Assembly (NCBI GenBank): GCA_964489705.1
Contig: CAZAZQ010000001.1
Span: 52,503-116,502 of the forward strand
DNA from: an uncultured Ignavibacteriales bacterium
GTDB lineage: Bacteria; Zixibacteria; MSB-5A5; GN15; FEB-12
DNA: 64,000 bases
Direction: 5' to 3'
The translations under genes and the position numbers were made by a program. A model generated the notes under the pieces. It was given only the letters and a program-made list of their open reading frames with translations, ran no database searches and was not told the DNA's origin. Position 1 is the stretch's first letter, and every line of letters begins with the position of its first letter. Shown here piece by piece: positions 1 to 16,395 of the stretch.

Positions 1-179
1 CGAACAAACCCAAGCCGTGGCTCGATGACACCAGTTGGGGTGAGCCGGTCGACCAGGGCGGTGACGACAGCGGTTGGGGCGAGCCAATTGTCCGAGACTA
101 TGGAAACAACAGCACTCTAATTGACATCTTCTTTCAGTATTTCTTCCTCAAGTTTTTATCAGGGGATGGAATAAAATAG
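1..179 (+). CDS. 3-prime fragment (5-prime end cut by window edge) of a small secreted W/D/G/P-repeat protein, paralog of 282..668
   Basis: Frame 3 reads NKPKPWLDDTSWGEPVDQGGDDSGWGEPIVRDYGNNSTLIDIFFQYFFLKFLSGDGIK, with TAG at 177-179. Nt 1-85 closely match 508-592 inside the next gene. It has the same hydrophobic C-terminal tail. Confidence 0.6.
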   Translation, partial: NKPKPWLDDTSWGEPVDQGGDDSGWGEPIVRDYGNNSTLIDIFFQYFFLKFLSGDGIK

Positions 180-281
180 GAGGTTTGTCTTATACCCCGG
201 GTGGCGGGTACAAAATGCTCGCCGCCCACCATATGAAGAGGAAATAACCGTAAGCCTTTAAGCCAAACAAAGGAGAACAAG

Positions 282-668
282 ATGAAAAAAGCTGCAATTC
301 TGTTGAGCGTTGCTCTCTTCGGTATGATGCTGCTTTCGGTGAGTGTTTACGCCGGCAGCACCGACCCCAACAAGCCGAAACCATGGCTCGATGACAGCGG
401 TTGGAGCGACCCGGTCGACCATAACGGCGACGACGGAAGTTGGGGCGAGCCGACTGACCGAGTAAGCGGCAAAAACAGCGGTGCTTACGCCACCGGCAGC
501 ACCGACCCGAACAAACCCAAGCCGTGGCTCGATGACGGCAGTTGGGTTGAGCCGGTCGACCAGAGCGGTGATGACGGTGGTTGGGGTGATCCGGTGCACA
601 GAAGTTGGAAGCGCTTTCACATTCAGTCGTTGTTGTTCGAGTTTTTTCTCTGGGGTTCGGTGAGGTAG
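282..668 (+). CDS. Small secreted protein with two tandem STDPNKPKPWLDD-GW-EPVD-GDDG-WG-P repeats and a hydrophobic C-terminal tail
   Basis: Signal-peptide-like N-terminus MKKAAILLSVALFGMMLLSVSVYA. There is an internal duplication (residues about 26-58 and 72-103). AGGAG lies upstream at 271-275. The tail is IQSLLFEFFLWGSVR. Confidence 0.7.
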   Translation: MKKAAILLSVALFGMMLLSVSVYAGSTDPNKPKPWLDDSGWSDPVDHNGDDGSWGEPTDRVSGKNSGAYATGSTDPNKPKPWLDDGSWVEPVDQSGDDGGWGDPVHRSWKRFHIQSLLFEFFLWGSVR

Positions 669-830
669 CAGGGAAAGGTCGGGTTCCTTTTTGCCGTGAG
701 CGGGGAGCCCGACCTGAGGTAACGAGAGAGCAAATGGGCAACACACGCATGCGTGATTTCGTGTCAACATTAACCAAAAACCTAAAGAAGGTCTGGTACA
801 AACCTGCCACCACTATCTCTCTAACGGCAG

Positions 831-870
831 TAACGGTAGGGAAGATCCGGTACGGATCTGCCTTTATTCC
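831..870 (+). repeat. Partial (5-prime half) copy of the ~105-nt structured repeat family
   Basis: TAACGGTAGGGAAGATCCGGTACGGATCTGCC is identical to the start of the full units at 2263 and 1831. Confidence 0.8.
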
Positions 871-879
871 AATGTCTAC

Positions 880-908
880 TTGACAGGGAAGCTTACAACA
901 TATATTCT
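880..908 (+). promoter_or_regulatory. Possible sigma70-type promoter for the AT-rich lipoprotein gene
   Basis: TTGACA (880-885), 17-nt spacer, TATTCT (903-908), about 30 nt upstream of the ATG at 940. Confidence 0.3.
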
Positions 909-939
909 TATGAATATTAAAGTCATAAGGAGATCGTCT

Positions 940-1697
940 ATGAGAATAATTAATTTATTTTTAAGTACCCTTCTTATCTTTTTTTTTCTTCATGTAGCAA
1001 AGATAAAACAGAATTTGAAGTAGCAGAGAGAACATATTATCAAGGTGATATTTCAAAGGCAAAACAATTATTTGAAGAATTTATTAAAAATTATCCCACA
1101 AGTAAGTGGAGAAACAGCGCCGAGAACGAACTTAATAAATGCCAAAAAATATTAGATAATTTTGATCAAATAAAAAAGTTAAGAAAACAAAAAAATTATA
1201 TTAAAGCTAAAGATTTGTACATTGAAATATATAAATTAAACTCAAGTATAGTTGATACACATAAAGTATTTTTAGAATTAGACAGCTTAAATTATATATA
1301 TGAAAATCAGTTTCTTGTTGATCTTTCAAAATTTTTGTTAACTATGAATTCTATCTCCAAAATTTTTATTCTTGGAGTTTATTACCTTGACAATAATTTA
1401 TCTGAAAATTATTACTTCGCTAAAGCAATTGATCAAGTAATGTCATCTGATGAAGCAAAAAGTCTTCAAGATAGTGTTTTATTTTACTACCAAAAAATAA
1501 AACTACCACCAACTAAATATGCTTCTTGTGTTAAAGAAATTGAAAATTCATATAGATCATTTAATGAATTAATTAATACTTTAAATAACCTACAAAATTA
1601 TAGCAGATTTACACTACGACAACAATTAGCAAAATTAGATAATAGTATAAGCTCTTCTATCAACAATCTCGCAATATATTTACCAAAAGATAACTAG
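940..1697 (+). pseudogene. AT-rich putative lipoprotein (TPR/helical-like) gene with reading frame broken at a T9 homopolymer
   Basis: AGGAG at 928-932, ATG at 940. MRIINLFLSTLLIFFF runs into T9 (979-987) and stops at 1021-1023. The -1 frame continues SSCSKDKTEFEVAERTYYQGDISKAKQLFEEFIKNYPTSKW... into tracked ORF 1215..1697. One extra T would give signal peptide plus lipobox-like FSSC. Confidence 0.6.
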
Positions 1698-1730
1698 CAA
1701 CGGTGGGAAGTTCCAGAACGGATCTGCCTA
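1698..1730 (+). repeat. Diverged partial copy of the structured repeat, starting right after the stop codon of the AT-rich gene
   Basis: CAACGGTGGGAAGTTCCAGAACGGATCTGCC aligns with unit start CAACGGTAGGGAAGATCCGGTACGGATCTGCC. Confidence 0.7.
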
Positions 1731-1830
1731 TTTTTATACACCTTATCTCTCGGCTACCTACCCGAGTAAATAGTGTCAGGAGAAATCCACTTGCAAAACA
1801 GAAAGAGTTTTTCTTATCTTCTCAACGAAG

Positions 1831-1937
1831 TAACGGTAGGGAAGATCCGGAACGGATCTGCCTTCTTTGATATTTCCCCCCGGCAGGTCTCTTTCGAGAC
1901 CTTCCCTACCGAACGGATAGCGCACATAAGTCGGTAG
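1831..1937 (+). repeat. Full ~105-nt structured repeat unit (copy C)
   Basis: TAACGGTAGGGAAGATCCGGAACGGATCTGCC...GGCAGGTCTCTTTCGAGACCTTCCCTACCGAACGGATAGCGCACATAAGTCGGTAG, near-identical to the units at 2263..2460. Confidence 0.85.
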
Positions 1938-1948
1938 TGGGGTAACGG

Positions 1949-2200
1949 ATGATGGTATTGCTTTATCTTAACATAATTCTTTTCTTGGCAGGCGTGGTGT
2001 GCCTGTTCAAAGCATGGCGAATGCAAGATCCTGAACATCCCCTCTTCACATTCAAAAAATCCAAACTGAACCCTCGACACTGGGACTGGAAGGCTTTTAG
2101 TAACAATAATCCAGCTTTCCGATTGGGGATGTTGGGATCGGTTTTGCTGACTTTAAGCGGTTTGATGGGTGCTATCTTTTGGATTGTAGTGGCACCCTGA
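1949..2200 (+). CDS. Small two-TM membrane protein, unknown function
   Basis: 83 aa with two hydrophobic segments (LLYLNIILFLAGVVCLF and LGMLGSVLLTLSGLMGAIFWIVV). It is sandwiched between repeat copies. No recognisable family. Confidence 0.45.
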   Translation: MMVLLYLNIILFLAGVVCLFKAWRMQDPEHPLFTFKKSKLNPRHWDWKAFSNNNPAFRLGMLGSVLLTLSGLMGAIFWIVVAP

Positions 2201-2262
2201 GGGTGACTTATTGATAAGCGCGGTCGGGAATCCTTTCCCGAGCGGATCTTTGCGAGGAGTAG

Positions 2263-2460
2263 TAACGGTAGGGAAGATCCGGTACGGATCTGCCTCTTTG
2301 ATATTCCCGTCTGGCAGGTCTCTTCGAGACCTTCCCTACCGAACGGATGGTGCACATAAGTCGGTAGCAACGGTAGGGAAGATCCGGTACGGATCTGCCT
2401 CTTTGATATTCCCGTTTGGCAGGTCTCTTGCGAGACCTTCCCTACCGGACTGCACGCACC
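2263..2460 (+). repeat. Two head-to-tail copies (A 2263..2367, B 2368..2460) of the ~105-nt structured repeat
   Basis: Direct tandem. Each unit contains the nested inverted repeats CGGTAGGGAAG/CTTCCCTACCG, GATCCG/CGGATC and AGGTCTC/GAGACCT. Confidence 0.9.
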
Positions 2461-2607
2461 AAAAACGCTCCAGACGTCGCCGATCGGTCACAAAACCAGA
2501 AAACCTCTTGAAAGAGAACAAGATAGAAGCAAAACACACGCTAAAACTTCCCTCTTGATCTCCGAGATCGTATATACAAAAATCCATTCTTGTTGTGAAA
2601 ATAACTC

Positions 2608-2636
2608 TTGACAAACGCTATAAGTGTTTTATTTTA
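2608..2636 (+). promoter_or_regulatory. Possible sigma70-type promoter upstream of 2805..3128
   Basis: TTGACA at 2608-2613, then a 16-17 nt spacer, then TATTTT/ATTTTA. Confidence 0.25.
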
Positions 2637-2804
2637 CTTACAGTTAAGTGAGGAGCGTGTGATAGGTGGGAACGTAAATAGGACGATATTTAATAATTGC
2701 TGTTTCCCGAGAGAGTGCATCAAGTTTGTAAGGCGGGGTACATGCTTCTCATCCCACGAGCCTATCTTTACGCTCATTATTAACGATAAGCAAGAAGGTT
2801 TGAT

Positions 2805-3128
2805 ATGAAGCGATTGATAACGCTTGTGCTTATAATCTCCTTTAGTGTAACCATCCTATCCCCCACACTATCCGCCGTCTGCCCTGATCCAAACTGGCGT
2901 CCTCCCTGGCGTCAAACTATCGAGGAAATACAACAAGGGGATGATACGGGGTGGGGAGAACCAGTAGATCAGAAAAGGGATTTTCCAAAGCCATTTCTCT
3001 TTATAAAAGATGGGATATCCTACTTTATTATTTTGCTGTTAAATTCAGCCAACCCTGAACAGCCGAGCAACGATGAAGACAAAAGCTTCACAGATATTGA
3101 CAATAGCAGAAGAGCTAATCCACAATAG
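2805..3128 (+). CDS. Small secreted protein, diverged member of the GWGEPVDQ family
   Basis: Signal peptide MKRLITLVLIISFSVTILSPTLSA, then CPDPNWRPPW...GDDTGWGEPVDQ and a hydrophobic stretch ISYFIILLL. The 3-prime end overlaps the next ORF. Confidence 0.55.
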   Translation: MKRLITLVLIISFSVTILSPTLSAVCPDPNWRPPWRQTIEEIQQGDDTGWGEPVDQKRDFPKPFLFIKDGISYFIILLLNSANPEQPSNDEDKSFTDIDNSRRANPQ

Positions 3129-5208
3129 ACATTTTCCTGAAGCTCTTCAAGCACTCCGGTCATGTGATGTTCCTTCTTTAGATGAGAAGGAATATGGTGA
3201 ATATTGTATATTGTTGGCTGAGGTTAATCTTTTCCTTGGAAATTACTCAGTAAATGATTTAATTGAGAGTGCAATCGAAGTTTTTCGCCTTGATGCTACA
3301 ACCGATAGGTATCCGAAAGCAAAATACTTACGAGGATGGCTTTTGTCATCGGTTGGGCAATATGCCGAAGCTAAAGAAGCTTTGATTGAAGCCCACATAA
3401 ACTACGTGCGTTGTCGTGACCACAAAGGAATTGCAAGATCATTAAATCGTCTCTCGTACGTTTATTTTCAATTAGGTGACATTGACGCTGCCATAGAAAG
3501 TTTAGAAAAGTGTGCAAAACAATATCATCAGGTTGATGATATCTCAAACGAATCTACAGTCTTAATGAATCTTGCTGCTCTTTGCTTCAGAGCAGGGAAA
3601 TTACAAAAGTCAATTTCATTATATCATCAAATTATCGGGCAACTCGAGGGGAAAGATATATTAATTGCATTTTATAACTCTTCTATCCCCTACGCACTCA
3701 AAGGGGATTACAAGACAGCGTTGGAAACCATCCAAAAGACGCAACCGGAATTGCAGACCTACGTCAGAGACCAAGCGATCTATTATGAGAATTTAGGGTT
3801 GATATCTATCCTGCGGGGCGACTATAACCGTGCGGAAAACGCCCTCAATGCCGGTCTGAAGATGTCGCTGGAGATAGCGCCCGAATCGTCGCTGGTCTCG
3901 CAAATCAAGCGGTTGTTGGGAGATTTGTACGTCGCTACAAGGAAGTGGCGGTTGGCGGAAAAATTTGCGCGCGAGGCGCTGGCGGTGGCGGAGAAAATCT
4001 CCGAGCGAGTGGAAATCGCGGCATGCTATCGGATCTTCGCGCAGATCGAACAGCACAAAAACGACGACGAAAAAGCCCGTATGTGGTTTGAGCGGGCAAT
4101 CGATATATTCACGCAAATAGGGTCGCTTTACGAGCTGGCGGTGACCCGCTACCTGGCGGCGACATCCGGCTTGTACGAAAGCGGCGAACGTACGGCGATG
4201 CTGTACTTGGCGCGGGAATACTTCCAATCGGAAGAGGTCAGCCATTACGTCGAGAAAATCGACGCGCAACTCCGGCGGATCCATATCCCGAAGCGCACCC
4301 CCGCCAACAAGAGCGGGTTCCCCTGCCCGAAGGTCATCGCCGTAAACAAAGAATTCCGGGAAATCTTGGAGCTGGCGAAAGAAGCCGCCCGTTCCGAGCT
4401 GTCCATCCTGCTGACGGGTCCGACCGGCACCGGGAAAGACATTCTCGCAGAGTTCATTCATTACCACAGCGGCAGGACGGGTAAGTTCGTCAAAATGAAT
4501 TCCGCCGCCATCCAGAACACTCTGATGGAGTCGGAGCTGTTCGGCAGCACACGCGGTGCCTTCACCGGCAGCAAAGACCGTATCGGTTTGCTCGAAGAAG
4601 CGGCGGATGGGACCTTCTTCCTCAACGAAATCGCCGACTCCTCTCCGGAAGTTCAAGCAAAGCTCTTGGAAGCGCTGGAATTCCATCATGTGAAACGGCT
4701 AGGTGAGAACAAAGTGCGCAAAGTGAACTTCCGGCTGATCACCGCCACAAACCGCGACCTCCTCGAGCTTATCGGCAAGGATCGCTTCCGTGCCGATCTT
4801 TATCACCGGCTCAACGAAATCAACATCGACCTCCCGCCGCTAAAAGACCGCAAAGAAGACATCCCGATGCTGACGCGTCATTTCCTTACTTTTGCGGGCT
4901 TCGACTTGACCGACGCCACCGAGAAAGAGCTTGACGAGCTCGGCAGCATCTTCATGCGTCGCATTTGGCCCGGCAACATCCGCGAGCTCAAAGCCGAAAT
5001 TCAACGGCTCTGGATGATGGCGCGCGGCGATATAAAGAAAATCATCGAGTACGCCCTCAAGCGCAACGAGGACATCGAGCGGGAAGAACTGATAACAGCG
5101 CTCCAAATGGCGGGCGGGAACTATGTAAAAGCGGCGAAGATTCTAGGCGTCAGCGAAGGAACCATCCGCTACCGCATCAAAAAGTACAAGCTGGGAAAAA
5201 CTAAATAA
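3073..5208 (+). CDS. Sigma-54-dependent transcriptional activator (bEBP) with an N-terminal TPR-like sensor region
   Basis: AAA+ core: Walker A LLTGPTGTGKD, ESELFG, GAFTG loop. C-terminal Fis-type HTH: GNYVKAAKILGVSEGTIRYRIKKY. About 400 aa of helical-repeat N-terminus. Confidence 0.9.
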   Translation: MKTKASQILTIAEELIHNRHFPEALQALRSCDVPSLDEKEYGEYCILLAEVNLFLGNYSVNDLIESAIEVFRLDATTDRYPKAKYLRGWLLSSVGQYAEAKEALIEAHINYVRCRDHKGIARSLNRLSYVYFQLGDIDAAIESLEKCAKQYHQVDDISNESTVLMNLAALCFRAGKLQKSISLYHQIIGQLEGKDILIAFYNSSIPYALKGDYKTALETIQKTQPELQTYVRDQAIYYENLGLISILRGDYNRAENALNAGLKMSLEIAPESSLVSQIKRLLGDLYVATRKWRLAEKFAREALAVAEKISERVEIAACYRIFAQIEQHKNDDEKARMWFERAIDIFTQIGSLYELAVTRYLAATSGLYESGERTAMLYLAREYFQSEEVSHYVEKIDAQLRRIHIPKRTPANKSGFPCPKVIAVNKEFREILELAKEAARSELSILLTGPTGTGKDILAEFIHYHSGRTGKFVKMNSAAIQNTLMESELFGSTRGAFTGSKDRIGLLEEAADGTFFLNEIADSSPEVQAKLLEALEFHHVKRLGENKVRKVNFRLITATNRDLLELIGKDRFRADLYHRLNEINIDLPPLKDRKEDIPMLTRHFLTFAGFDLTDATEKELDELGSIFMRRIWPGNIRELKAEIQRLWMMARGDIKKIIEYALKRNEDIEREELITALQMAGGNYVKAAKILGVSEGTIRYRIKKYKLGKTK

Positions 5209-5249
5209 GCCCCTCTTCCCTTTTCCAAAAAACTTCAAGCTTTGTAAAT

Positions 5250-5279
5250 GTAGGGCAAGTCTCGAAGAGACCTGCCAAA
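5250..5279 (-). repeat. Partial reverse-orientation copy of the 3-prime half of the structured repeat
   Basis: The reverse complement TTTGGCAGGTCTCTTCGAGACTTGCCCTAC matches the unit segment TTTGGCAGGTCTCTTGCGAGACCTTCCCTACC. Confidence 0.65.
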
Positions 5280-5323
5280 AATTAAGAAGCAATAGGTCTG
5301 TCCTTGACCCCTTCTATCTGAAG

Positions 5324-5644
5324 CTATCGGCTCTCCATTTCGCTCTTGACCCACTCGATGTAGTCGGACAAACCGTCGGAAAGCGGCAGCGAAATAATTT
5401 CGGGAATATCATAAGGATGGTGCTCGACGACCCAGGCACGCAATTCGTCAAAGCGCTGCCGGGTAGTCTTGACAATCAAGAGCGCTTCTTCGTCATGCTC
5501 GACCTTGTCGTCCCACCAGTAGTACGACTCAATCTTGGGAAGGATATTCACACACGCCGCCAAGCGATTTTCCACCAAGCCGCGGGCAAGCTCCTTGGCT
5601 TCGTCCCGCGGCAATGAGATAAACACCACCCGGATATTTTCCAT
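5324..5644 (-). CDS. cutA: Divalent-cation tolerance protein CutA
   Basis: 106 aa with LAACVNILP..IESYYWWDDKVEHDEEALLIVKT...HPYDIPEI, typical of CutA1. Confidence 0.85.
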   Translation of the reverse strand: MENIRVVFISLPRDEAKELARGLVENRLAACVNILPKIESYYWWDDKVEHDEEALLIVKTTRQRFDELRAWVVEHHPYDIPEIISLPLSDGLSDYIEWVKSEMESR

Positions 5645-5952
5645 TATTTGCTCACTTCCCGTTTGAGTTTCTTTTCGATTGACGCCACCTTGCCGGTGAG
5701 GCGGTTGCGCGCCCCTTTACGGTCGTCCATTGTCAGCACCATGTAGACTCGGTCGTGCTTCTTTCTCAACATCAGACGCGCCTTGTTTATTAACGCCATG
5801 ACGGTATCCCAGTCGCCTTCGATAATCGTGGACATCGCCGTCAATTTGTACGGCAACCCGGACTTGTCGATGAGGTCGATAACTTTGGCGACATCCTCGG
5901 AAACCGAAGCGGTCCCTTTACTCGTCGGAAAAATAGCCAACTGAAACAACAT
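5644..5952 (-). CDS. MTH1187/YkoF-like (DUF77) thiamine-binding family protein
   Basis: 102 aa. N-terminus ...LAIFPTSKGTASVSEDVAKVIDLIDKSGLPYKLTAMSTIIEG is typical of this family. Confidence 0.7.
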   Translation of the reverse strand: MLFQLAIFPTSKGTASVSEDVAKVIDLIDKSGLPYKLTAMSTIIEGDWDTVMALINKARLMLRKKHDRVYMVLTMDDRKGARNRLTGKVASIEKKLKREVSK

Positions 5953-5954
5953 CG

Positions 5955-7211
5955 CTACTCCTCCTGTAAACGTTCGGGATACAAAGGAAACTTCTCACAT
6001 AACGCCGCTACTTCCTTGGCGATTTCCGCCAACACTTCGTCGTTGCGGCGATTTTCAATCGCCCGGTGGATAAACTCAGCTATCTGTTCCATCTCCGCCA
6101 CCCCCATTCCCCGCGTCGTTACCGCCGGTGTCCCGATGCGGATCCCGGAAGTTACAAACGGTTTCTCAGGATCAAAAGGAACGGTATTCTTGTTGACCGT
6201 AATTCCCGCTTTGTCCAACGCTTTCTCGACTTTCTTGCCGGTCAGCTTCGGGATGTCAATAAAAGACACCAGCATCAAATGCGTATCGGTCCCTCCGGCA
6301 ACCAACCGATAGCCGCGCTTCTTGAGCGCCTCGGCTAAGGCTTTGGCGTTTTCGACGATTCGCTTTTGATATTGCTTAAACTCATCGGTTAAGGCTTCCT
6401 TGAACGCCACCGCTTTCGCCGCAATAACGTGCATCAAGGGACCGCCCTGGATACCGGGCATCACCATCCGGTCTAAATCGGCGGCATATTTCTCCTTGCA
6501 CATCACCACTCCCCCACGCGGCCCGCGCAGAGTCTTATGGGTAGTGGACGTAACGAAATCGGCATACGGTATTGGCGAGGGATGCAGTCCGGCGGCTATC
6601 AATCCGGCGATATGGGCAATGTCGACCATCATGTACGCCCCGACCGCATCGCAAGCTTCGCGAATCTTTTCAAAGTCCCAAAACCGAGGATATGCCGACG
6701 CCCCCGCTACAATCATTTTCGGCTTTACTTCTTTTGCCTGCTCGATGAGTTTGTCATAGTCGATGACTTCCGTTTCCTTGTCGACCTGATAGCCGACGAA
6801 GTCGAAGAGAAATCCGGAAAAGTTTATGGGGTGCCCGTGGGTTAAATGCCCGCCGTGCGAGAGGTCGAGTCCCATCACCTTATCACCCGGTTTGAGAACC
6901 GTAAAGTAGACCGCCATGTTCGCCTGCGAGCCGCTGTGGGGTTGGACATTGGCATGTTCACACCCGAACAATTGTTTGAGCCGCTCACGAGCGAGGTCTT
7001 CGGCAATATCGACATATTCACAGCCGCCGTAGTAGCGTTTGCCGGGGTAGCCTTCGGCATACTTGTTGGTCAGCACTCCCCCGGCGGCTTCCAACACCGC
7101 TTCGGAAACGAAATTTTCCGAAGCAATAAGCTCTAATTTTGTCGCTTGACGGTTTGTTTCTTTGACGATAGCATCATATATTTCCGGGTCGACATCTTTA
7201 AGATATGACAT
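5955..7211 (-). CDS. glyA: Serine hydroxymethyltransferase
   Basis: [63 protein letters not shown] and the [15 protein letters not shown]-lysine motif. The tracked ORF extends to 7730, but the conserved N-terminus begins at the ATG at 7211. Confidence 0.95.
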
Positions 7212-7268
7212 AACATTGCTCCATAGTTTTGCCGTACTCTTTTGACATAATGTAGCGAAAACTTGGCG

Positions 7269-7796
7269 ATGGGTCAAATGAATACCAAACCGACAATCGT
7301 GGTCAGCAAATGCCTCGGCTTCGCCGCTTGCCGCTATGATGGTGGCGAAGTGGCAAGTGAACTCATTGCCAGGCTCAAGCCGTATGTGACCTTCATTCCC
7401 GTTTGCCCCGAAGAAGAAATCGGGCTCGGGACGCCACGCGAACCGATTCTCATAACTTTGAACGGCAACCGCCGCCGTCTCATTCAGCCTGCTGAGAGAA
7501 AAGAGCTTAGCGAAATCATGAACCGCTTTGCCGAGGATTTCCTCGCTTCGTTGAAGGAAGTCGACGGGTTCATTTTGAAAAGTAAATCCCCCTCGTGCGG
7601 TATCAACGATGTCAAATTGTTTGCCGACGAAAGCGCCACCAAAGTCGTCGGCAAAGGGTCGGGTTTTTTTGCTGAGGCAGTACTGGAGAAATTTCCCCAT
7701 CTCCCCGTCAAAACGGAACGACGACTGCAATCATACGCACGAGAACGGGAACGCTTTTTCGAAAGAATCTTTGGACGTAAGGACTTCCCCTTTTAA
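7269..7796 (+). CDS. DUF523 family protein (TudS-like)
   Basis: [20 protein letters not shown]...[16 protein letters not shown] is characteristic of DUF523. The start is ambiguous (7263 TTG, 7269 or 7278 ATG). Confidence 0.7.
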
Positions 7797-7987
7797 GGCG
7801 GAAGAATTTTCCTTTTCTCTACGTTTCCAATGCCATGATGGGCAACTTCACTCTGACTCTGGGAGTTCAATATCACTTCCCTTCTTATTTGCTCTCTAAC
7901 TGCGAAAATCCTAAAAGAAAAACCGGGAGTGAGTTACTCCCGGCTTCGTATATCGCCTTATCCTCCTGCCGGAACGGCAAAGGAGGC

Positions 7988-8392
7988 TTAGTACCATTTC
8001 GGGACAAACTTGTAGCCGTAGCTCAAGACACCGTGATGCCCTTCCGTCTGGATACGGCGGAACTCGATACGAACTTCCATGCCGATTTCGACTTTCTCGA
8101 CATCACAGTCGGTCATCTGACCCATCAAACGGGTGCCGTCCGTCAGCTCGACGATTGCCAGCGCATACGGCGCCAGATCGCCCCACTGACTGGGGGCAGT
8201 GCGGATGACGGTATAGGTCATCACTTTGCCCGTATCGGGAAGCTTGACCGTTTCCGAAGCGGTGTCGCCGGTTTCGGGGTCAATCGTGCGCGGCGGGAAA
8301 TAGGTCTTACCGCTTTTGGTGAACTTCGAGGCTTCCAACCGGTACCGCTGGGGATATTCACGCCAATTTCGAGAACTAAACATACTCATCAT
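7988..8392 (-). CDS. DUF35 OB-fold protein, partner of thiolase/HMG-CoA synthase
   Basis: 134 aa with an OB-fold segment [10 protein letters not shown]...[20 protein letters not shown]...[10 protein letters not shown] 4-nt ATGA overlap with the thiolase stop. The N-terminal segment lacks the usual CxxC pairs. Confidence 0.75.
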
Positions 8393-9549
8393 GCCACCTC
8401 CATAATATGCACCACCGACGACGCTCCGGAACCGCCCATATTCTGGGTCATTCCGAGGGTGGGAGAATTGGGAATCTGTCTGCCGTTTTCCGCTTGACCG
8501 GTCAACTGCTTGTAGACCTCAATCACCTGCGCAATGCCGGTGGCACCGACGGGATGTCCCTTGGACTTCAGACCGCCTGACGAATTCACCGGAAACGTGC
8601 CGTCCAGCGCCGTCTCACCGGCAAGAGTCGCCGGTCCCGCTTTGCCGGGTTCGTAGATGCCCAACGACTCCAACACTACCAGCTCAGCGATAGTGAAGCA
8701 ATCGTGGACTTCGGCAAATTGAATATCCTTGATGGTCTTCCCAGCCATTTTCAGGGCACGCTCCGCAGCCAACGTGGTCGCTCGGATAGTGGTGATATCG
8801 TCGCGTTGCGCCAGTTGAATGGTATCGGTCGCCGCTCCCGAGCCGAGGACTTTAATGTAGGGTTTGCCCAGTTTCTTGGCGATTTCCTCGGTGGTCACGA
8901 TAACCGCCGCCGCCCCGTCGGTAATGGGAGAACAATCGAGAATCCGGAGCGGATCGGCAATCATCACCGATGATTCCACCTGCTCGCGGGACACTTCAAA
9001 GGGATACTGCGCCACCGGATTTTTGGCACCGTTCTTATGGTTTTTCACCGACACCGCGGAAAGCATTTCGCGGGTGGTGCCGTACTTTGCCATATGGGCA
9101 TGAGCCATCATAGCATACAAACCGGGGAAGGTGGCACCGTGGAAAACTTCGTACTCTTGGTCTGCCGCCGTCGCCAGAGCGAAGGTAGCTTCATCCCCGG
9201 AGCAGTCGGTCATTTTTTCCACGCCGCCCGCCATGACGATGTCGGAGACTCCCGCCGCCACCTCGATGAACGCCTGACGAAACGCCAGCCCGCCCGAGGC
9301 GCACGCCGATTCGACCCGCGCCGCCGGCAAACCGCGCATTCCCATATAATCCGCCAACAAGGCTCCCAAGTGCTCTTGCCCGACGAACAAGCCGCCCGAC
9401 ATGCACCCGACATATAATGAATCGATATGGTCAACCCCAGAATTGTGAATCGCTTCCATCGCCGCATCGACAAAAAGCTGCCGCAGCGACTTCCGCCAGA
9501 CCTCACCCCATTGACTCATGCCGACACCAACAACACATACATCTCTCAT
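8389..9549 (-). CDS. Thiolase (acetyl-CoA acetyltransferase, archaeal/SCP-x-like type)
   Basis: [16 protein letters not shown]..., active-site region [10 protein letters not shown]-terminal [14 protein letters not shown]. Confidence 0.9.
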
Positions 9550-9562
9550 TGCAATCGTCCTC

Positions 9563-10612
9563 CTACTTGTTCATGTGGATTTTGTGCCGGAACTTGGCAT
9601 AGGTCCCGTAATCGAGATAGATGAGGTTCTCATCGAGAAGCTTCCGGGTATGGACCGCTTTGTCTCGCACTTCCTCAATCCGGTCGGTAACTTTCCAAAT
9701 AAAGGCATCGGAACCGGCACCCGAACCGAAGGAACACATCAGAATCAAGTCGCCCGGCTTCGCCACGTCGAGCGTCGCAGTCAAACCGATGGGGGAAGCG
9801 CCGGAGTAGGTGTTTCCCAATGTCGGCGAGAGCCACCCGGGGTTGATTTGTTCTTGAGTAAAGCCCAGTTGGAAAGCGACCCGCTGAGGGAATTTCCCGT
9901 TCGGCTGGTGAAAGACGGCATAGGTGAAATCTTTCGGCGTCAAACCGGATTTTTTCAAGATGGCGTTGGTCGCTCCCTTGGTATGAGCGAAATAAGCTTC
10001 CTCGCCGGTGAAGCGACCCGTGTGTTGCGGGTAAAATTCATGCTCCCGGCGCCAGAAGTCGGGGGTATCGGTCATGTACGAATGCGTATACAAACACTCG
10101 GCGATGAGCTGTTCCGTTCCCATGATGAACGCAGCCGCACCGGCGGCGGCGGAAAACTCCAGCGCATCCGACGGCGCCCCCTGAGAGGTATCGGCGGCTA
10201 TGGCGAGAGCATATTTCATCTCCCCCGCTTTCACATGGCTCATCGCCACGTACATTCCTTCCGAACCGGCTTTGCAAGCGAATTCCAAATCGGCACAGTG
10301 GATATCCGGAGTCGCCCCGATAGCTTCGGCAACGGTCGTGCCCGACGGCTTCACCGCGTACGGATGCGACTCGGAACCGATGTAGATGGCGCCGATTTCT
10401 TTCGGGTCGACATGCTCGGCTCGTTTGAAAGCGTTTTTGGTCGCCTCAACCGATAAGGTAATGGTATCCATATCGGGGGGAGGAACCGACTTTTCGCGCA
10501 GCATTAATCCTTTTTTGTAGCTGGGCGCATCCGCTCCCCACACCTTGGCGATTTCTTCGACCTTGATGCGGTGGCGAGGGAGGTGCGCTCCGTAACCAAC
10601 AATTCCTACCAT
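9563..10612 (-). CDS. Hydroxymethylglutaryl-CoA synthase, short archaeal-type
   Basis: [26 protein letters not shown]..., [29 protein letters not shown]. About 349 aa from the ATG at 10612; the tracked ORF extension to 10741 looks spurious. Confidence 0.85.
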
Positions 10613-10778
10613 AGTAAACCTCTTGTATTTCAGTTCATTCGGCACGTTATCTTCAATTCGTATTAATTGGATATAATACAGCCATCGCCGGACAAACACA
10701 AGCCATATCGTCGTCAGTCGAAAAATTATCCCCCACTTCAAGCGAATCTCGAGAGTACGCTATCAAGGGACAAGAAAA

Positions 10779-10818
10779 ACACAAAAAATCCGGCAGGTTC
10801 TTCGCAAGAACCTGCCGG
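10779..10818 (-). terminator. Rho-independent terminator at the end of the cytochrome operon
   Basis: On the minus strand: CCGGCAGGTTCTTGCGAAGAACCTGCCGG followed by ATTTTTTGTGTTTTT, 30 nt after the stop at 10849. Confidence 0.7.
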
Positions 10819-10848
10819 AGACTTGTTTCACAAAAGCTGGATTTTTCG

Positions 10849-13398
10849 TCAGGGAGTCGGGGGAACGTAGGGAGGGGTTTCATCCTCCTTAATCACTCCC
10901 TTCTCGACCAACGAGCGGTACCAGTTGGGATGGTGGTGCTCCGCCCACTCTTTGGTCACGTAGCCGTCTACCAACACCCGCCAGGTTCCCGGGTTAGCGA
11001 TGGTTCCCAAGTAGGCATGAGAGAGCACTCCGGCAATAAGGATAAAGCCGACCAAGTTGTGAATCGTCGATGTGACGCAAATCCAGGAAAGCGGGAAGGA
11101 CGACTTGAAAATCAACATCACGCCCGTTATCCCAATGATAATGCCGAAAAACGACGTATACCAGTAGAACAACTTCTGCCCGGCGTTGAAGCGACCGGCA
11201 GGGACTTCTCCTTTATAGCCAAGGTATCCGCCCAACCGTCGAACCCAATCAATGTCGTAGGAAGCAAACAAGGCATCCTTGAACCACAAGCCAATCCCCA
11301 AAATCGTCGTGATAATAAAGACAATCCCAGCAACAATATGGAACGTCAGCATTTGTTCCGCCGAGCGGAAAAGCAGGTCTTGCCAATTCGCCCAGTTAAA
11401 CGCCATAATCAGCCCTGATACCGATAGAATAATAAATGCCAGTAGCCGGAAAAGGTGTACCGACCGCTCGGTTGCGGAAAACCGCTTGACTTCGCCGGAA
11501 TACGGGACAAACGGAATCCGCTTGGGCCCGTAGCCATGGTAGTGTACCGTAATCAAGAAAATAACAAGGATGATAGAAACACTGACCAGCGGACTGAGAA
11601 TCTCTTGGTGAAACGAATTAATGGCAAAAGCAATGGGATTGCATCCTAACGCCCGCCCGATATGTCTCGTAACTGGCTTGCCGTCTTCTCCGTACAGATC
11701 GTAGACCCTGTCCCCTTTGAAGAAATGGGCATCCTTGGCGTGGCAATCCTGACAGCCGTTTGCCCCTAACGCCTCACGGGCGGGAGCGACATTGTGACTA
11801 ATAGAGTAGTTTACACACTCCGGTGTCCCATAGTCAAGCTCAGCTAAGTTTCCTTGCTCATCAAGGTGGTATACCTTCCCTCCCTTTACCAGAACCGGAT
11901 GAATTTGAGTAAAACGCTTGTTATCCTTCAAAGATTCCGCATACGCGTGCAACCCCGCGATAATTTCTTCTTTGCGGTTGACTTCAGGGATACCGTCATC
12001 ATTATCATCGGTGACTTTGTCAGAGAATAACTCCCACCCTTTTCCCTGTTCCTTCAACCACAGAGGGTAGACAATGCTGTCGACCAGATTTCCCCACCAA
12101 ATCACCACCATGCTGTTAAACGGATATATCTTATTTCCCACCCAACGCTCATATGCCGGTTTCCACTCGGCCTTTTCGCCAAAAGACGTGGCTTCGGGAG
12201 GATTAAAGTAAAATACTTGCTCGCCGGTTGTGGATTCAATCCCTTGGATAGTAGAGCGATGGAGCTTGGGAATGTGACATGACTCACAAGCAATGACTTT
12301 CAAATGAGAGGGTCTTATCTTGGAGTGACGAGGCACAGTCGCTCCCAAATATCCTTCCATATGACATTCTTCACACGTCTTTATCGTACCGTCAAGGCTG
12401 TCAGCAACCCGAGAAGAACTGGCGTTTCCTTTTGCAAACTGGTGGTCAGGTCCACTGGGGTGACAGGCGGCACAACTGATGTCTTGCCCGTTATGGACAT
12501 CGGGATTAAAAATATCATTCCACGAAAAACCGCGCTTCCGAGAATCGGTTTGCCCGTGGCAGAAAATGCAGTTATCGTCCGGTGGCGGCCAAGACATCTT
12601 TAAGGAAAGAGAACCGTCTTCGTTGAAAAACCGCCTGTTGTAAGTAACCGAAGGCTCATCGCCGTTTGCCACCGAGCCTTCGATAAGTCCCAACCGTGAA
12701 CCGGCAACTACCGCCCACTGGTAATTCCCCATTGTCAGTTGCTCAACCCGGGCATCATAATCGTACCCCTCCATATGGCAGATAAAACAATCCGCCTCAA
12801 CCACTCCGCTCTTATCCCAGTTGCTCTGATAGTAGTCGCCGTCCAGGGTGTTACGGAGCTCGGGGTTCTCGCTTAGATATTCATCATACCGATTCCCCTC
12901 TCTGTCATATTCCAAACCACCCCCACCGGGATGACATGCGCCACAGGGAGGAAGAGAGCTCTGCTGCGAAAAGCCGACAAAGTCATATACCGACAGATCA
13001 ATCTCTTCCTCAAAGTCATTATGTTTTTTGGCTAATTGCCGGTCATACATCGGGCACCACTTCCCCATCATGCCGTCGGATATTTGCCACGGTTTCCCCT
13101 CAGGAACGCCGAAAGTGTCGCTGACCACATCCCAGCCCATTTGGAAGTGGAAGCCGGAGGTAATCTCCTCGTAGTCATGACACATGCCGCAGGTCTGTTC
13201 AGTACTGAACGGCTGGTGGGCATTATCGCCGGTCATGGGGTTGATTTCGTCCCCGTTTTTATCCAAGAGGAAAATAGCCGGGTGCTGGCTCATTCCCGAC
13301 GCGGCAAACGAAAACACTAACGCCAGGACCATAACGCCAAGCAAGGGGATTTTCCTCCCGAAGAAAAAGCGTAAAGCGTGAAGAGAACTAATCACCAT
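10849..13398 (-). CDS. Fusion of an octahaem c-type cytochrome to a C-terminal membrane cytochrome-b-like domain (CbcL-like architecture)
   Basis: N-terminal TM/signal. 8 CxxCH (CGMCH, CGACH, CFICH, CIFCH, CAACH, CEECH, CESCH, CQDCH). The last ~250 aa have 4-5 hydrophobic helices with conserved His (FdnI/PhsC-like). Confidence 0.8.
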   Translation of the reverse strand: MVISSLHALRFFFGRKIPLLGVMVLALVFSFAASGMSQHPAIFLLDKNGDEINPMTGDNAHQPFSTEQTCGMCHDYEEITSGFHFQMGWDVVSDTFGVPEGKPWQISDGMMGKWCPMYDRQLAKKHNDFEEEIDLSVYDFVGFSQQSSLPPCGACHPGGGGLEYDREGNRYDEYLSENPELRNTLDGDYYQSNWDKSGVVEADCFICHMEGYDYDARVEQLTMGNYQWAVVAGSRLGLIEGSVANGDEPSVTYNRRFFNEDGSLSLKMSWPPPDDNCIFCHGQTDSRKRGFSWNDIFNPDVHNGQDISCAACHPSGPDHQFAKGNASSSRVADSLDGTIKTCEECHMEGYLGATVPRHSKIRPSHLKVIACESCHIPKLHRSTIQGIESTTGEQVFYFNPPEATSFGEKAEWKPAYERWVGNKIYPFNSMVVIWWGNLVDSIVYPLWLKEQGKGWELFSDKVTDDNDDGIPEVNRKEEIIAGLHAYAESLKDNKRFTQIHPVLVKGGKVYHLDEQGNLAELDYGTPECVNYSISHNVAPAREALGANGCQDCHAKDAHFFKGDRVYDLYGEDGKPVTRHIGRALGCNPIAFAINSFHQEILSPLVSVSIILVIFLITVHYHGYGPKRIPFVPYSGEVKRFSATERSVHLFRLLAFIILSVSGLIMAFNWANWQDLLFRSAEQMLTFHIVAGIVFIITTILGIGLWFKDALFASYDIDWVRRLGGYLGYKGEVPAGRFNAGQKLFYWYTSFFGIIIGITGVMLIFKSSFPLSWICVTSTIHNLVGFILIAGVLSHAYLGTIANPGTWRVLVDGYVTKEWAEHHHPNWYRSLVEKGVIKEDETPPYVPPTP

Positions 13399-13419
13399 AC
13401 AACTCCTTACATCAATACG

Positions 13420-16395
13420 TCATCGATAACCGAAAATCTCCGCATATATAATTAAAATAATGAGTGCCAAGCCTATCAGTAAAGCAATTGTCCCAAAAAC
13501 CCGAATGCCGTTGACTACAATCGGCGGTAACGGTTCGACCAAGTGTTTCTTGATTTCCCGCGATTTTACAAGCTGGGAGTATTCCCGGGGTCGGTCATGC
13601 TCCAACTCTTTAAGAGGAACGCGGCCGGTAAAGATAACCGTATCCATAGGGAATTTTTCCGGGCGGAAATGAGTATTGAAAAAGTGAACGGTAAAGATAA
13701 AACCGGTCGCCAATAGCGCTTCATCCGAGTGGATGATACTTGCAACGTTGATAATCCACCCCGGCAAAAAGCGGGTAAAGAACTCAGGGAACCACAACAT
13801 CAAGCCGGTCGCTCCGATAACGGCAACTCCCCAGAACACGGCGAAGTAGTCGAATTTCTCCCAGTATGTCCATCTGCCGTACGCCGGACGGGGACCTAAG
13901 CCCAAGAACCACTTAATCGTTGCTTTCAGGTCTTGCCAGTCGTTTTTGTTTGGGAGCATTGAGTTCTCGCTGAAGAGTATTTGTCTCCAGCTCTTTTTGC
14001 TCCGTCGCTTGTTATAAATCAACTCGCCTATGTGAGCAAAGAAATATCCGAAAGTCAAAATCGCACAAATACGATGAATGTATGCTGCTGACTCAAAGCC
14101 GCCCAACATACCAGACAACCATTTCGCCCAGCCCAAGTAAGAGAACTTCAGCGTCATGCCGGTCATCGCCAAGCCGAGAAAACTTACTACCATCGTGACA
14201 TGTAACACCGAATGGAACGGCTTGAACCGACGGTACTCCAAGCGTTCCATGCCGACCTGACGAAGTTCTTTATGCTTTTTCATCATCTGCCACGAACGAG
14301 GCAACCAGAGTAAGGTATGTGTCCCGGCTAATACAAACGTCACCACCAGCAGAATGGTCATAAACCAAAAGGTGTAGTAAAGAATCGGATACTTGGTACG
14401 ATCGTGGTGGGTGGCATGAGTCAAATAGCCGGCAAACTGACGATGCGAACCGGGGTGACATTGCCCACAGGTCTCAACGATATTTTGATGGGAGAGACGA
14501 GAGTTCGGATCATCCGGCGGGAGGATATCATGAGCGCCATGACAATTGTAGCACTTTGCCGCTTTGGCGTAGCCGAGTTTGGAGCTCTTGCCGTGAACCG
14601 TCTCGAAATACGACTCGGTCACATCTTCGTGGCAGCCGCCGCATTTCTCGAGAATCTCCTGACGGAAACGGTCGGTATCGACCCGCTCGATAGTATGGGA
14701 CTGGTGACAATTGGCACAGGTGGGCAGCGGCTTGTCCGTCTTTGCAACGGTGGGAGAGTGAATGCTTTTGGCAAATTTTTCGTAAATCCCTTTGTGACAC
14801 TGGGCACATGTTTTCGAAATATTGTGGGGGGCAACACTCGACGCTGAATCGCTCTTCGGCAGTTCATGGTGAGCGGTGTGACAATCGGTACACATAGCGG
14901 TCACCACCAAGCCGCTTTCCAGAAGCCCTTTCCCGTGGATACTGGAAGTATAATAATCCGTAACGCACACTTCCCCTTTCCTCGCCCGGCGTTTTCCCAC
15001 GGTCCCCGATGCAGTGTGACACTGACTGCACAGCGCCGGGACGTTGGTCGGGAACGTAGGGGATGATTGGTCTTTGTGTCCCTTCATGCCGTGTTTGCCG
15101 TGACAATCAATACAATCGGGGGCTTCGGGATCGCCGCGGTCGACCAGTTTGCCGTGGGTGCTGGTCATGAAAGTTGCCACCACCTCACTATGGCAAATGG
15201 AACAGTCTACTTTCGGGATAACCGTTGTACAGGGACGCTTCAGCCCCGGCGTGGCACCGGTATGACATTGGGCACAGGTAACGCTTCGATGGATAGAATT
15301 ATGAAACTCCACCGTATCGACGGAGAGCGAAACGGTATCGCCGTCAACCACTTTGAAGATATCCGGCTTGGCGTGACACTTCAGACACTCTTGATTCGAG
15401 ATGCCTTCCTTGTAGTATACCCGGCGGATTTGATGCGGAGAGTGACAATCGACACAAACCGGAACTTTGTGCGGTTCTTTTTCCCACAACTCTCCCCGAA
15501 TGACTTTTTTATGAACTTTTTCAATCTGCCCGTGACACTTTTGACAGGTGCGCGCGACATTGTCTCGATGAATACTTGACTGAGGGTCATTGTGGTTGCG
15601 GACATCATGAGCGGTATGACAATCGCTGCAAACCGCACTGACCATCAAACCTTTCTTAAACAGCCCTTCTCCATGGATCGACTGAGAGTAGTGAGAGAGG
15701 ATTGAATCTTCCGGGATGTCGTACTCTTCGGTAATCGGCGACCCCTCTTTATGGCAGCGTCCGCACATAAAGGGAATATTGAACTTTGCCACCCGCGCTT
15801 CAGGGGAGTGAGCACTGACAATATCGTGTGAGCCATGGCAATCCCAGCAACGCGGCGCCAATTTCGCGCCGGCGTGGACGGCTTTGCCGTGTAACGACTG
15901 GTCGTATTCCTTCGCGATTTTTTGGTGACAGCGAGAGCAATTGACCCCTCTCTCCCCGACATCTGAGCGGGAAGGCGACATAACGGTATGGTGCCCATGA
16001 CAATCCCAACACTGGGCGGCAGGTTGAGTGCTTGGCGGTACAATTTCTCCGTGAATACTGTGGGCATACTCCTCGGTGACGTCATCGTGACAAGTGCTGC
16101 AATCAACCGGTTCCACGTCCTCGTCGTGAGGATAATCTTCCGTCCCCGCCAAATCGGCATGGCATTCCACGCAGTCCATTCCGGCATGGACGGAAGAATC
16201 AAACGCCGCCGCCGAAACGTAAACAGAGAATTCCTCACCCAGACTATTGACGCCGGTTAGTTCTTCATCTTCATGGCAGGAGAGACAGGTTTCGTTATCA
16301 TCCTGAGCCGTCGCGGAACCTAAGGAAAAAACCAAGAAAAAGAAAACAGATGCGCTAAGGCATCTGAATCTTTTTACCATCCCAAGCCTTCGCAT
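13420..16395 (-). CDS. Fusion of a 21-haem c-type cytochrome to a C-terminal membrane cytochrome-b-like domain
   Basis: Signal peptide, 21 CxxCH motifs counted by eye, then about 330 aa with multiple TM helices (YTFWFMTILLVVTFVLAG..., HVTMVVSFLGLAMTGM..., IHRICAILTFGYFFAHI...). Confidence 0.8.
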   Translation of the reverse strand: MRRLGMVKRFRCLSASVFFFLVFSLGSATAQDDNETCLSCHEDEELTGVNSLGEEFSVYVSAAAFDSSVHAGMDCVECHADLAGTEDYPHDEDVEPVDCSTCHDDVTEEYAHSIHGEIVPPSTQPAAQCWDCHGHHTVMSPSRSDVGERGVNCSRCHQKIAKEYDQSLHGKAVHAGAKLAPRCWDCHGSHDIVSAHSPEARVAKFNIPFMCGRCHKEGSPITEEYDIPEDSILSHYSQSIHGEGLFKKGLMVSAVCSDCHTAHDVRNHNDPQSSIHRDNVARTCQKCHGQIEKVHKKVIRGELWEKEPHKVPVCVDCHSPHQIRRVYYKEGISNQECLKCHAKPDIFKVVDGDTVSLSVDTVEFHNSIHRSVTCAQCHTGATPGLKRPCTTVIPKVDCSICHSEVVATFMTSTHGKLVDRGDPEAPDCIDCHGKHGMKGHKDQSSPTFPTNVPALCSQCHTASGTVGKRRARKGEVCVTDYYTSSIHGKGLLESGLVVTAMCTDCHTAHHELPKSDSASSVAPHNISKTCAQCHKGIYEKFAKSIHSPTVAKTDKPLPTCANCHQSHTIERVDTDRFRQEILEKCGGCHEDVTESYFETVHGKSSKLGYAKAAKCYNCHGAHDILPPDDPNSRLSHQNIVETCGQCHPGSHRQFAGYLTHATHHDRTKYPILYYTFWFMTILLVVTFVLAGTHTLLWLPRSWQMMKKHKELRQVGMERLEYRRFKPFHSVLHVTMVVSFLGLAMTGMTLKFSYLGWAKWLSGMLGGFESAAYIHRICAILTFGYFFAHIGELIYNKRRSKKSWRQILFSENSMLPNKNDWQDLKATIKWFLGLGPRPAYGRWTYWEKFDYFAVFWGVAVIGATGLMLWFPEFFTRFLPGWIINVASIIHSDEALLATGFIFTVHFFNTHFRPEKFPMDTVIFTGRVPLKELEHDRPREYSQLVKSREIKKHLVEPLPPIVVNGIRVFGTIALLIGLALIILIIYAEIFGYR

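Follow-up and report, generated by a model that had tools for sequence, protein, structure and literature searches.

In a 64-kb stretch of the genome of an uncultured bacterium (hereafter the window, meaning the whole of the DNA analysed), we find a structured repeat that is probably a local cluster of GTAG-tagged REPs, arranged as head-to-head heterodimers of the REPIN/BIME kind, with copies known from this one window. The repeat is most likely ordinary, junk-like bacterial DNA, that is, pairs of REP hairpins gathered in one intergenic hotspot. The GTAG-REP family itself is previously undescribed, and the kind of element to which it belongs is already known.

Using an nhmmer profile built from the three full units and searched over 64 kb, we recovered, at the same positions or a few bases away, all the copies of a ~105-nt repeat listed in a preliminary description of this DNA. 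The window contains three full units, two left-half copies, and one right-arm copy, or nine REP monomers in total, all inside 5.3 kb, and neither nhmmer nor a scan for GTAG followed by a hairpin gave additional credible copies in the other 59 kb. The full units, all on the + strand, were matched with E values of 1e-37 to 5e-33. Unit C (1827..1937) consists of a left (L) REP at 1834-1862, a spacer at 1863-1881, an inverted right (R) REP at 1882-1911, and a 26-nt tail at 1912-1937. Unit A (2259..2367) has the same layout (L REP 2266-2294, spacer 2295-2312, inverted R REP 2313-2341, tail 2342-2367) and shares this 26-nt tail with unit C. Unit B (2364..2464) stands in tandem with unit A and is built from an L REP (2371-2399), a spacer (2400-2417), and an inverted R REP (2418-2447), without the conserved tail.

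The remaining three copies are singlets. The first left-half copy (828..886, + strand; E 7e-11, covering profile positions 2-59) carries an exact 29-mer left arm, with the GTAG head at 836-839 and the hairpin at 840-862, and continues into the spacer; its right REP is absent. The second (1695..1752, + strand) is a degenerate L-type REP plus spacer that reads CGGT-GGGAAGTTCCAGAACGGATCTGCC, in other words a GTAG that has lost its A; nhmmer aligned it over 1695-1733 (E 1e-6), and a local alignment extends to the end of the spacer. We rejected the idea that decayed right arms lie 3' of these two half-copies, since right-arm alignments to the sequence 3' of both score no better than shuffles. The third singlet, an R-type REP at about 5248..5277 with its GTAG first on the + strand (GTAGGGCAAGTCTCGAAGAGACCTGCC), has 26/28 identity to the right arm and keeps the GTAG and a 10-bp stem; nhmmer matched it on the minus strand over 5250-5301 (E 5e-5). 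It lies 2.8 kb away from the cluster, in another intergenic space, between the convergent genes for a sigma-54 activator (stop at 5208) and CutA (stop at 5324). No relative of this sigma-54 activator was found in the GTDB representative genomes. The 29-nt left arm occurs four times in the window at no more than one mismatch and not once in 100 shuffles.

Each unit is composed of two 29-nt arms in inverted orientation, separated by a conserved spacer of 18-19 nt. Each arm begins with CG-GTAG and continues into a 10-bp stem that contains a conserved A·G mismatch and closes in a loop of 3-4 nt. The resulting doublet of about 76 nt holds one L and one R REP head-to-head, with the GTAG ends pointing outward, and each unit also carries a conserved, asymmetric flank on its left, GNAGYAA. 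The earlier description of three nested inverted repeats, with CTGCC/GGCAG as an alternative pairing, is borne out. The arms are 76-79% complementary over 29 nt, with the outer 11 bp perfect, and the minimum-free-energy fold of the doublet is either a rod (one long hairpin) or a four-way junction. Folded in isolation, the arms give '......((.(((((((...))))))).))', in which the CGGTAG head is unpaired, with energies that range from -10.4 to -12.0 kcal/mol for RNA and from -5.8 to -7.5 for DNA. Computational folding, one of the checks proposed for the repeat, showed that whole units (-41 to -45 kcal/mol) fold better than shuffles both as RNA (z -3.1 to -4.8) and as DNA (z -3.3 to -4.4). The GTAG plus hairpin scan of the window yielded eight elements with 10-bp stems, and all eight are members of this family. 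GTAG stands before the stem in 8/9 monomers, the 1695 copy being the exception. The mismatched third stem pair, A·G, is retained in six of the seven distinct monomers.

It had been suggested that differences between copies fall in loops while stems are kept, and that this reflects selection on structure. The loop differences (GTA/GAA and TTC/TTTC/TTGC) are correct; however, they come from three nearly identical copies, and the degenerate 1695 copy does break stem pairs. The argument holds in spirit, but the true compensatory changes are found between the L and R arms rather than between copies: three stem pairs distinguish the two arm types, each by a compensatory change (A-T to G-C, C-G to T-A, and G-C to C-G), which constitutes a single comparison between two lineages. 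Across the monomers, 87% of the cells are paired, versus 14-49% when the partner is slid.

All six sites are extragenic and lie either 3' of unidirectional ORFs or between convergent ones. On the + strand, an ORF for a small secreted repeat protein (P0003; 282..668, 5' of the first REP) is followed by the copy at 828, an AT-rich orphan lipoprotein-like gene (940..1697, between the two L-type singlets) by the copy at 1695, and an 83-aa ORF with two predicted hydrophobic helices (1949..2200, between units C and A; missing from public annotations) by unit A at 2259. The ORF-repeat alternation described previously holds insofar as a copy follows each + strand ORF, but unit C comes about 95 nt after the 1695 copy with no ORF between them. 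The reading frame of the lipoprotein-like gene is broken by a frameshift within a T9 tract (983-991); the gene has a promoter-like site of its own, and its TAG stop overlaps the start of the 1695 copy. The very different GC content of the cargo was confirmed, at ~60% for 300-600, 21-25% for 900-1700, and ~46% for 1900-2200. That segments of 60%, 24%, and 46% GC adjoin one another between the repeats is a minor curiosity.

The hotspot rich in REP or MITE elements that had been proposed as one explanation is supported in its REP form, because each arm is an imperfect hairpin with a GTAG tag, and the arms are paired head-to-head. GTAG-tagged REPs are short stem-loops of 20-40 nt, with a stem of 6-13 bp and a short loop, and each arm has this form. 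In REPs, the hairpin foot carries a conserved GTAG on its 5' side, and binding by TnpA-REP in E. coli needs a mismatch in the stem (PMC3479197). Head-to-head dimers, heterodimers, clusters, the supply of TAG stops, and a location 3' of ORFs have all been described for REPs (PMC3733652), and REPIN clusters consist of tandem repeats that include flanking sequence, with large clusters adjoining RAYT genes (PMC3116915). The present units resemble the REPINs of Pseudomonas fluorescens SBW25 and many other bacteria (PMC3733652, PMC3116915) in the following respects: (i) an unpaired 5' GTAG before a short imperfect hairpin; (ii) inverted REPs with GTAG outward, a short spacer, and the possibility of forming one long hairpin; (iii) an extragenic location 3' of ORFs; and (iv) tandem clusters with flanking DNA, the singlets being more decayed than the doublets. 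In contrast to SBW25-type REPINs, one cluster is visible in the 64-kb window, a RAYT gene was not found in the window, and the units are heterodimers with a conserved spacer, the GNAGYAA left flank, and the 26-nt tail. The BIMEs of E. coli, in which y and z REPs alternate and which are associated with TnpA-REP/RayT (PMC3479197), are likewise heterodimers of two types with a GTAG head and a stem mismatch, but they have no sequence similarity to our units and differ in stems and loops, and no IHF-type linker motifs were recognised here. The clustering has a parallel in the GTAG-23 REPs of Thermomicrobium roseum, which are grouped in blocks at a small number of loci and are not scattered over the genome (PMC3733652); their sequence is different, and the clustering reported here is seen in one window.

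The exact left arm has no match in the GTDB representative genomes or in the JGI metagenomes, the outer-stem pattern has none in viral contigs, and units A and B gave no BLASTN match in plasmids or phages. A six-frame translation of the concatenated units, a search aimed at spurious ORFs called over other copies, had no match at E <= 10 among 5.8 billion protein clusters, and a text search of the literature for the head motif returned unrelated primer sequences only. The inverted outer-stem pattern hit 35 stretches of JGI metagenomes, 33 of which represent one family with the layout CGGTAGGGAAGCCGCGCCGCGGGTTCCC, variable spacer, inverted copy (JGI Ga0209181, Ga0105046-8; loci L007-L041). We counted 109 monomers of this family, dispersed over at least 25 contigs of one JGI metagenome organism. 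They form doublets as well as direct arrays of four to six; the doublets are mostly extragenic (about 29 of 32), and an A-T to C-G variant is compensatory. The metagenome family shares with the window family an identical 11-nt head, CGGTAGGGAAG, a head imposed by the search pattern, together with the stem register, head-to-head doublets, and one stem mismatch. The metagenome family differs in its inner stem and loop, in the place of the mismatch (stem pair 5, versus 3 here), and in being composed of homodimers with variable spacers in a host of 65% GC, whereas the window units are heterodimers. Homology between the two families is unproven, because the head was imposed by the search and GTAG-headed families are common. 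A RAYT-like insert in recG at metagenome locus L007 was considered as the transposase of the CGGTAGGGAAG REPs and rejected, as a different hairpin brackets the insert.

Three other explanations of the repeat can be weighed against this evidence. We consider it unlikely that the units are locus-restricted elements acting only as RNA (3'-UTR stabiliser or attenuator hairpins, or tandem sRNAs) that multiplied by local duplication without a transposase. The confinement of all copies to one 5.3-kb stretch of the window would suit such elements, as would the very stable folds (-41 to -45 kcal/mol, z to -4.8), the position 3' of ORFs, and the left hairpin with its T-rich spacer, which scored as terminator-like. 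On the other hand, the outer stem has no U-tract after it and the units have no promoter-like site ahead of them, and one copy, situated between convergent genes, has the reverse unit orientation. Membership of a known RNA family, checked with covariance models, was not borne out: Rfam gave no match in the 64 kb at gathering thresholds and none overlapping the units even at E <= 10. No tRNA or tmRNA genes were found, and ARAGORN made no tRNA-like call despite the cloverleaf-like fold of the units. The GTAG head, the conserved stem mismatch, and the head-to-head pairing, all of them REP hallmarks, would be left unexplained by an RNA-only role. A role as a hairpin at mRNA 3' ends is nevertheless compatible with the identification as REPs.

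The integron cassette array that the layout had brought to mind fares worse. Like integron attC sites and the Vibrio cholerae repeats of chromosomal cassette arrays, the units are near-identical, imperfect inverted repeats of ~100 nt that follow small ORFs of mixed composition; the module of L REP plus spacer recurs five times in direct orientation, delimiting segments of 867, 132, 432, and 105 nt, and these segments, with the 24% GC orphan gene among them, differ strongly in GC. An attC site carries inverse core sites, R'' (RYYYAAC) and R' (GTTRRRY), at its two ends. The RYYYAAC/GTTRRRY sites are absent here: the units read ..AGYAACGG on the left and ..CCGAACGG or CCGGACTG on the right (AACGG...CCGAAC overall), with no GTT core and ends that are not complementary. 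In addition, a cassette array should have a complete site at each of its boundaries, and two of the five boundaries here have a half-unit; each arm is a GTAG-headed palindrome, the AT-rich ORF has a promoter-like site of its own, and one copy stands 2.8 kb away between housekeeping-type genes. An integrase was not seen in the window, and no tyrosine recombinase or transposase domain occurs in window ORFs of at least 90 aa. We therefore give only a slim chance to recombination sites of a gene-cassette system, whether integron-like or served by another recombinase encoded 5' of the window, with the segments as cassettes. The least probable of the readings is a conventional MITE derived from an insertion sequence with a DDE transposase. 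Terminal inverted repeats of 11-29 bp and a small size of about 76-105 nt would fit; yet target-site duplications, for which the preliminary description proposed to inspect the flanks, are not discernible in the window, where the flanks are a conserved part of the duplicated unit, and the CGGTAGGGAAGCCGCGCCGCGGGTTCCC family of the metagenome also has none. GTAG-headed palindromes are not a feature of DDE terminal repeats, no matching insertion sequence lies in the window, and the units have no match in plasmids or phages.

If the units are REP doublets, they would have been generated and maintained by a RAYT (REP-associated HUH tyrosine transposase), which presumably recognises the single-stranded hairpin together with the GTAG guide. 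A cognate RAYT is a single-copy gene that usually has the same REPs on its flanks; neither tblastn nor Pfam/NCBIfam searches of all ORFs of at least 90 aa detected a RAYT or any Y1/HUH gene in the window. The tandem pair of A and B, and the 26-nt tail common to C and A, may have arisen when a doublet was duplicated along with flanking DNA, and the three singlets are plausibly doublets that were truncated or decayed. Where the hairpins 3' of the small ORFs are transcribed, they would probably structure the 3' ends of the mRNAs, either stabilising them or weakly terminating transcription; the left hairpin and the T-rich spacer after it score as terminator-like. Breaks of Logan contigs at 834 and 2386 might have signalled many genomic copies, a reading that we rejected because each break falls exactly at the first 31-mer that no other copy in the window shares.

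The main value of these observations lies in annotation: a new GTAG-REP family is identified in an uncultured bacterium that has no near relative among GTDB representative genomes, and an integron or a novel structured RNA is removed as a false lead. The repeat copies also account for the breaks of short-read assemblies at this locus. The REP identity predicts that a RAYT gene may sit near the cluster, possibly just 5' of the window. It can further be speculated that the doublets are the boundaries of a capture hotspot in which RAYT and REPs mediate the acquisition of foreign cassettes, as a single-strand HUH analogue of the integron; modules of L REP plus spacer do bracket the 60%, 24%, and 46% GC segments, and the stop of the AT-rich lipoprotein-like gene abuts the next module. 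We give this idea a very slim chance. If the family proves to be restricted to this locus and linked with the segments of mixed GC, the cluster would become more interesting, as a case of REP-bounded gene capture.

The repeat family was found where the preliminary description had placed its copies, by reading of positions 1–6000, by a repeat finder, and by nhmmer. With a profile built from the full units, of which there are three, nhmmer recovered six sites across the whole window: the plus-strand full units A (2259–2367), C (1827–1937), and B (2364–2464), with E values from 1e-37 to 5e-33; two plus-strand singlets of the left (L) type, at 828–886 (E = 7e-11) and 1695–1733 (E = 1e-6); and a minus-strand singlet of the right (R) type at 5250–5301 (E = 5e-5). 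The remaining nhmmer matches were at chance level or within genes, with no further credible copy in the whole window, and the family is restricted to its first 5.3 kb. Allowing up to one mismatch, the window contains four occurrences of the 29-nt left arm, and 100 shuffles contain none. Both L-type singlets retain the spacer, and similarity to a decayed right arm downstream of them was no better than in shuffles. Logan contigs from three runs begin at window positions 834 and 2386. We rejected these breaks as a sign of further copies and regard them as uninformative on that point, because each of them coincides exactly with the first 31-mer not shared with the other window copies.

The core of each unit is 76–78 nt long and consists of a left arm, CGGTAGGGAAG-ATCCGGTACGGAT-CTGCC, a T-rich spacer of 18–19 nt, and a right arm that reads, as its reverse complement, CGGTAGGGAAG-GTCTCGAAGAGAC-CTGCC. 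The units had earlier been described as three nested inverted repeats; the inverted repeats are present, and are better described as a pair of related arms of 29 nt, inverted relative to each other, which account for all three. Each arm is a palindrome preceded by GTAG (GTAG, GGAAGATCCG, a 3-nt loop, and CGGATCTGCC), whose stem has ten pairs and, at the third of them, a single A·G mismatch. A lone arm is predicted to fold as '......((.(((((((...))))))).))', with the CGGTAG head unpaired. When the window was scanned blindly for a hairpin preceded by GTAG, eight elements with a 10-bp stem emerged, every one of them a member of the repeat family.

Of the ten stem pairs, three differ between the L and R arms in an alignment of seven distinct monomers, each through a compensatory change; six of the seven monomers retain the A·G mismatch, and pairing is seen in 87% of cells, versus 14–49% with the partner slid. 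Because this covariation amounts to a single L-versus-R comparison, it is modest evidence, but it does show that what is conserved is the single hairpin. Computational folding agreed with the structured character first proposed for the units, which are more stable than shuffled controls both as RNA (z = −3.1 to −4.8) and as DNA (z = −3.3 to −4.4). The whole unit has alternative folds, a rod or a four-way junction, at about −35 to −37.5 kcal/mol as RNA and −19 kcal/mol as DNA, compared with about −22 and about −13 kcal/mol, respectively, for two separate hairpins.

These features indicate that the repeat is probably a GTAG-tagged REP (repetitive extragenic palindrome) doublet, of a family seen here in those 5.3 kb alone. 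Di Nocera et al. (PMC3733652) describe GTAG-tagged REPs with stems of 6–13 bp and loops of 2–3 nt, which form head-to-head dimers with GTAG outside, including heterodimers of two stem types; their clusters mix singlets and dimers with flanking DNA, they tend to lie 3' of ORFs or in the gap between convergent ones, and their termini supply TAG stops. Likewise, C, A, and B are three head-to-head heterodimers, accompanied by two L-type singlets without a right arm and one R-type singlet; the latter is situated between two convergent genes, those for the sigma-54 activator and CutA, and the start of the 1695 copy overlaps the TAG stop of an AT-rich ORF. In Bertels and Rainey (PMC3116915), the inverted doublet is named REPIN, singlets are viewed as decayed doublets, and tandem clusters of nearly identical REPINs take in flanking sequence, the largest adjoining genes for RAYTs (REP-associated HUH tyrosine transposases); similarly, B follows A in tandem, and a 26-nt tail is common to C and A. 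Messing et al. (PMC3479197) show that binding and cleavage by the E. coli RAYT require both GTAG and the stem mismatch. The REP hotspot considered in the preliminary description is matched by the GTAG hairpins, their inverted pairing, and their extragenic placement.

The exact left arm had no match in GTDB representative genomes or JGI metagenomes, the unit had none in plasmids or phages, and six-frame translations of the units had none among 5.8 billion protein clusters. A looser pattern, namely the inverted 11-nt outer stems alone, 40–70 nt apart, had no match in viral contigs and matched 35 stretches in JGI metagenomes. Thirty-three of these represent one family, CGGTAGGGAAGCCGCGCCGCGGGTTCCC with a variable spacer and an inverted copy, from an organism of 65% GC. 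In the fetched loci, this family comprises 109 monomers spread over at least 25 contigs, in doublets and in direct arrays of four to six, with no target-site duplications in the flanks; 29 of 32 distinct doublets lie between ORFs by a GC3-based proxy, and in a subfamily an A-T stem pair is changed to C-G. Its head and stem register are those of the window arms, the head being imposed by the search pattern; for this reason, and because GTAG families are numerous, its canonical REP behaviour informs the class and is not proof of common descent.

Beside some metagenome doublets of this family stand two to three tandem copies of just the 14-nt REP head, CGGTAGGGAAGCCG (loci L007, ~10640–10680; L013, ~3850–3895; L020, ~1195–1235; and the right flanks in L015 and L027). 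The inverted CGGTAGGGAAG 11-mer also occurs in two other metagenome hairpins (L014, 814–886, and L037, 939–1024, on contigs of 41% and 51% GC), which are long near-perfect palindromes reaching past CGGTAGGGAAG, with arms not themselves palindromic, and are probably unrelated elements. In L007 (JGI Ga0209181_10004489), a recG ORF (3776–6505) carries an in-frame insert of ~150 aa (about 4949–5404), which matches positions 4–145 of the 146 in the NCBIfam REP-associated tyrosine transposase profile (E = 1e-20, 74 bits, cut-off 80) and, weakly, Pfam Y1_Tnp. On either side of the insert stands a hairpin of another kind, in inverted copies, ACAGGCGTCCCGCCTGT (4866–4882) and ACAGGCGGGACGCCTGT (5481–5497), and 27 nt past the recG stop begins an array of GGTAGGGCAGCC... 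REPs, six direct and one inverted. In the window itself, tblastn with two RAYT query sequences did not find a RAYT.

A purely local RNA element is an unlikely explanation: the covariance-model search against RNA families gave no Rfam match on the units even at E ≤ 10, nor any at gathering thresholds across the 64 kb, and ARAGORN called no tRNA-like gene. The integron-like cassette array raised at the outset fared worse, and a cassette recombination site seems very improbable. The two ends of an integron attC site are core sites that complement each other, RYYYAAC and GTTRRRY, whereas the unit flanks (left, AGYAACGG; right, CCGAACGG or CCGGACTG) are not complementary. Moreover, of the five boundaries two are half-units, the AT-rich ORF comes with a promoter-like site of its own (880–908), and no integrase or transposase was found among window ORFs of 90 aa or more (Pfam/NCBIfam, the Pfam families of genes at 3073–16395 being taken from annotations of matching contig records).

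The module of L-type REP and spacer does bracket segments of widely differing composition, with GC contents of about 60% over 300–600, 21–25% over 900–1700, and about 46% over 1900–2200. A REP-bounded capture hotspot is nevertheless slightly less probable again, and nothing in the window requires such a reading; a DDE-type MITE is the least probable of these alternatives. The AT-rich segment includes an orphan lipoprotein-like gene (940–1697; 24% GC, with a range of 21–25%) that has a signal peptide and an SSC resembling a lipobox. A frameshift within a T9 tract (983–991) splits this gene. An independently made Logan assembly (L042) has the same tract length and frameshift, and no homologue other than the gene itself was found; it may be a pseudogene or subject to phase variation.

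The window is an ordinary piece of chromosome, with genes for SHMT, a mevalonate-type thiolase/HMG-CoA synthase, multihaem cytochromes, aconitase, RF-1, cytochrome c maturation, and type VI secretion. The type VI cluster (30774–51843) includes TssK-like, TssG, gp25/TssE, VgrG, Hcp, TssC, TssB, and PAAR genes, and its ClpV ATPase is divided between two ORFs that overlap (43926–45380 and 42826–43929). The REP cluster is located within an array of three small secreted-protein paralogues (1–177, 282–668, and 2805–3128) with the repeats PNKPKPWLDDxGWxxPVD / GWGEPVD. The window start truncates the first, which corresponds to the upstream neighbour P0008; the 128-aa member has no Pfam family and matches only itself and P0008 among the 5.8 billion protein clusters. 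A strong hairpin, GGTCGGG...CCCGACC (676–716), just past the stop of ORF 282–668 and 110 nt before the first REP, is unrelated to the repeat family and probably that gene's own terminator-like structure. The sigma-54 activator gene (3073–5208) is compositionally mosaic, its TPR N-terminal part (3073–3700) having 35–39% GC versus 54–58% for the AAA+/HTH part; public annotations give it two starts, for 711 aa or 621 aa (TTG at 3343), and the 711-aa form overlaps the 2805–3128 ORF.

I infer that the family would have been generated by a HUH transposase of the RAYT type, working on the hairpins in single-stranded form, that C, A, and B were probably produced by tandem duplication together with flanking DNA, and that the singlets are probably truncated doublets. 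The left hairpin with its T-rich spacer scored terminator-like, and in transcripts the hairpins may serve as 3'-end structures. The element class is a previously known one, of whose REPs and doublets the window family is probably a further example.
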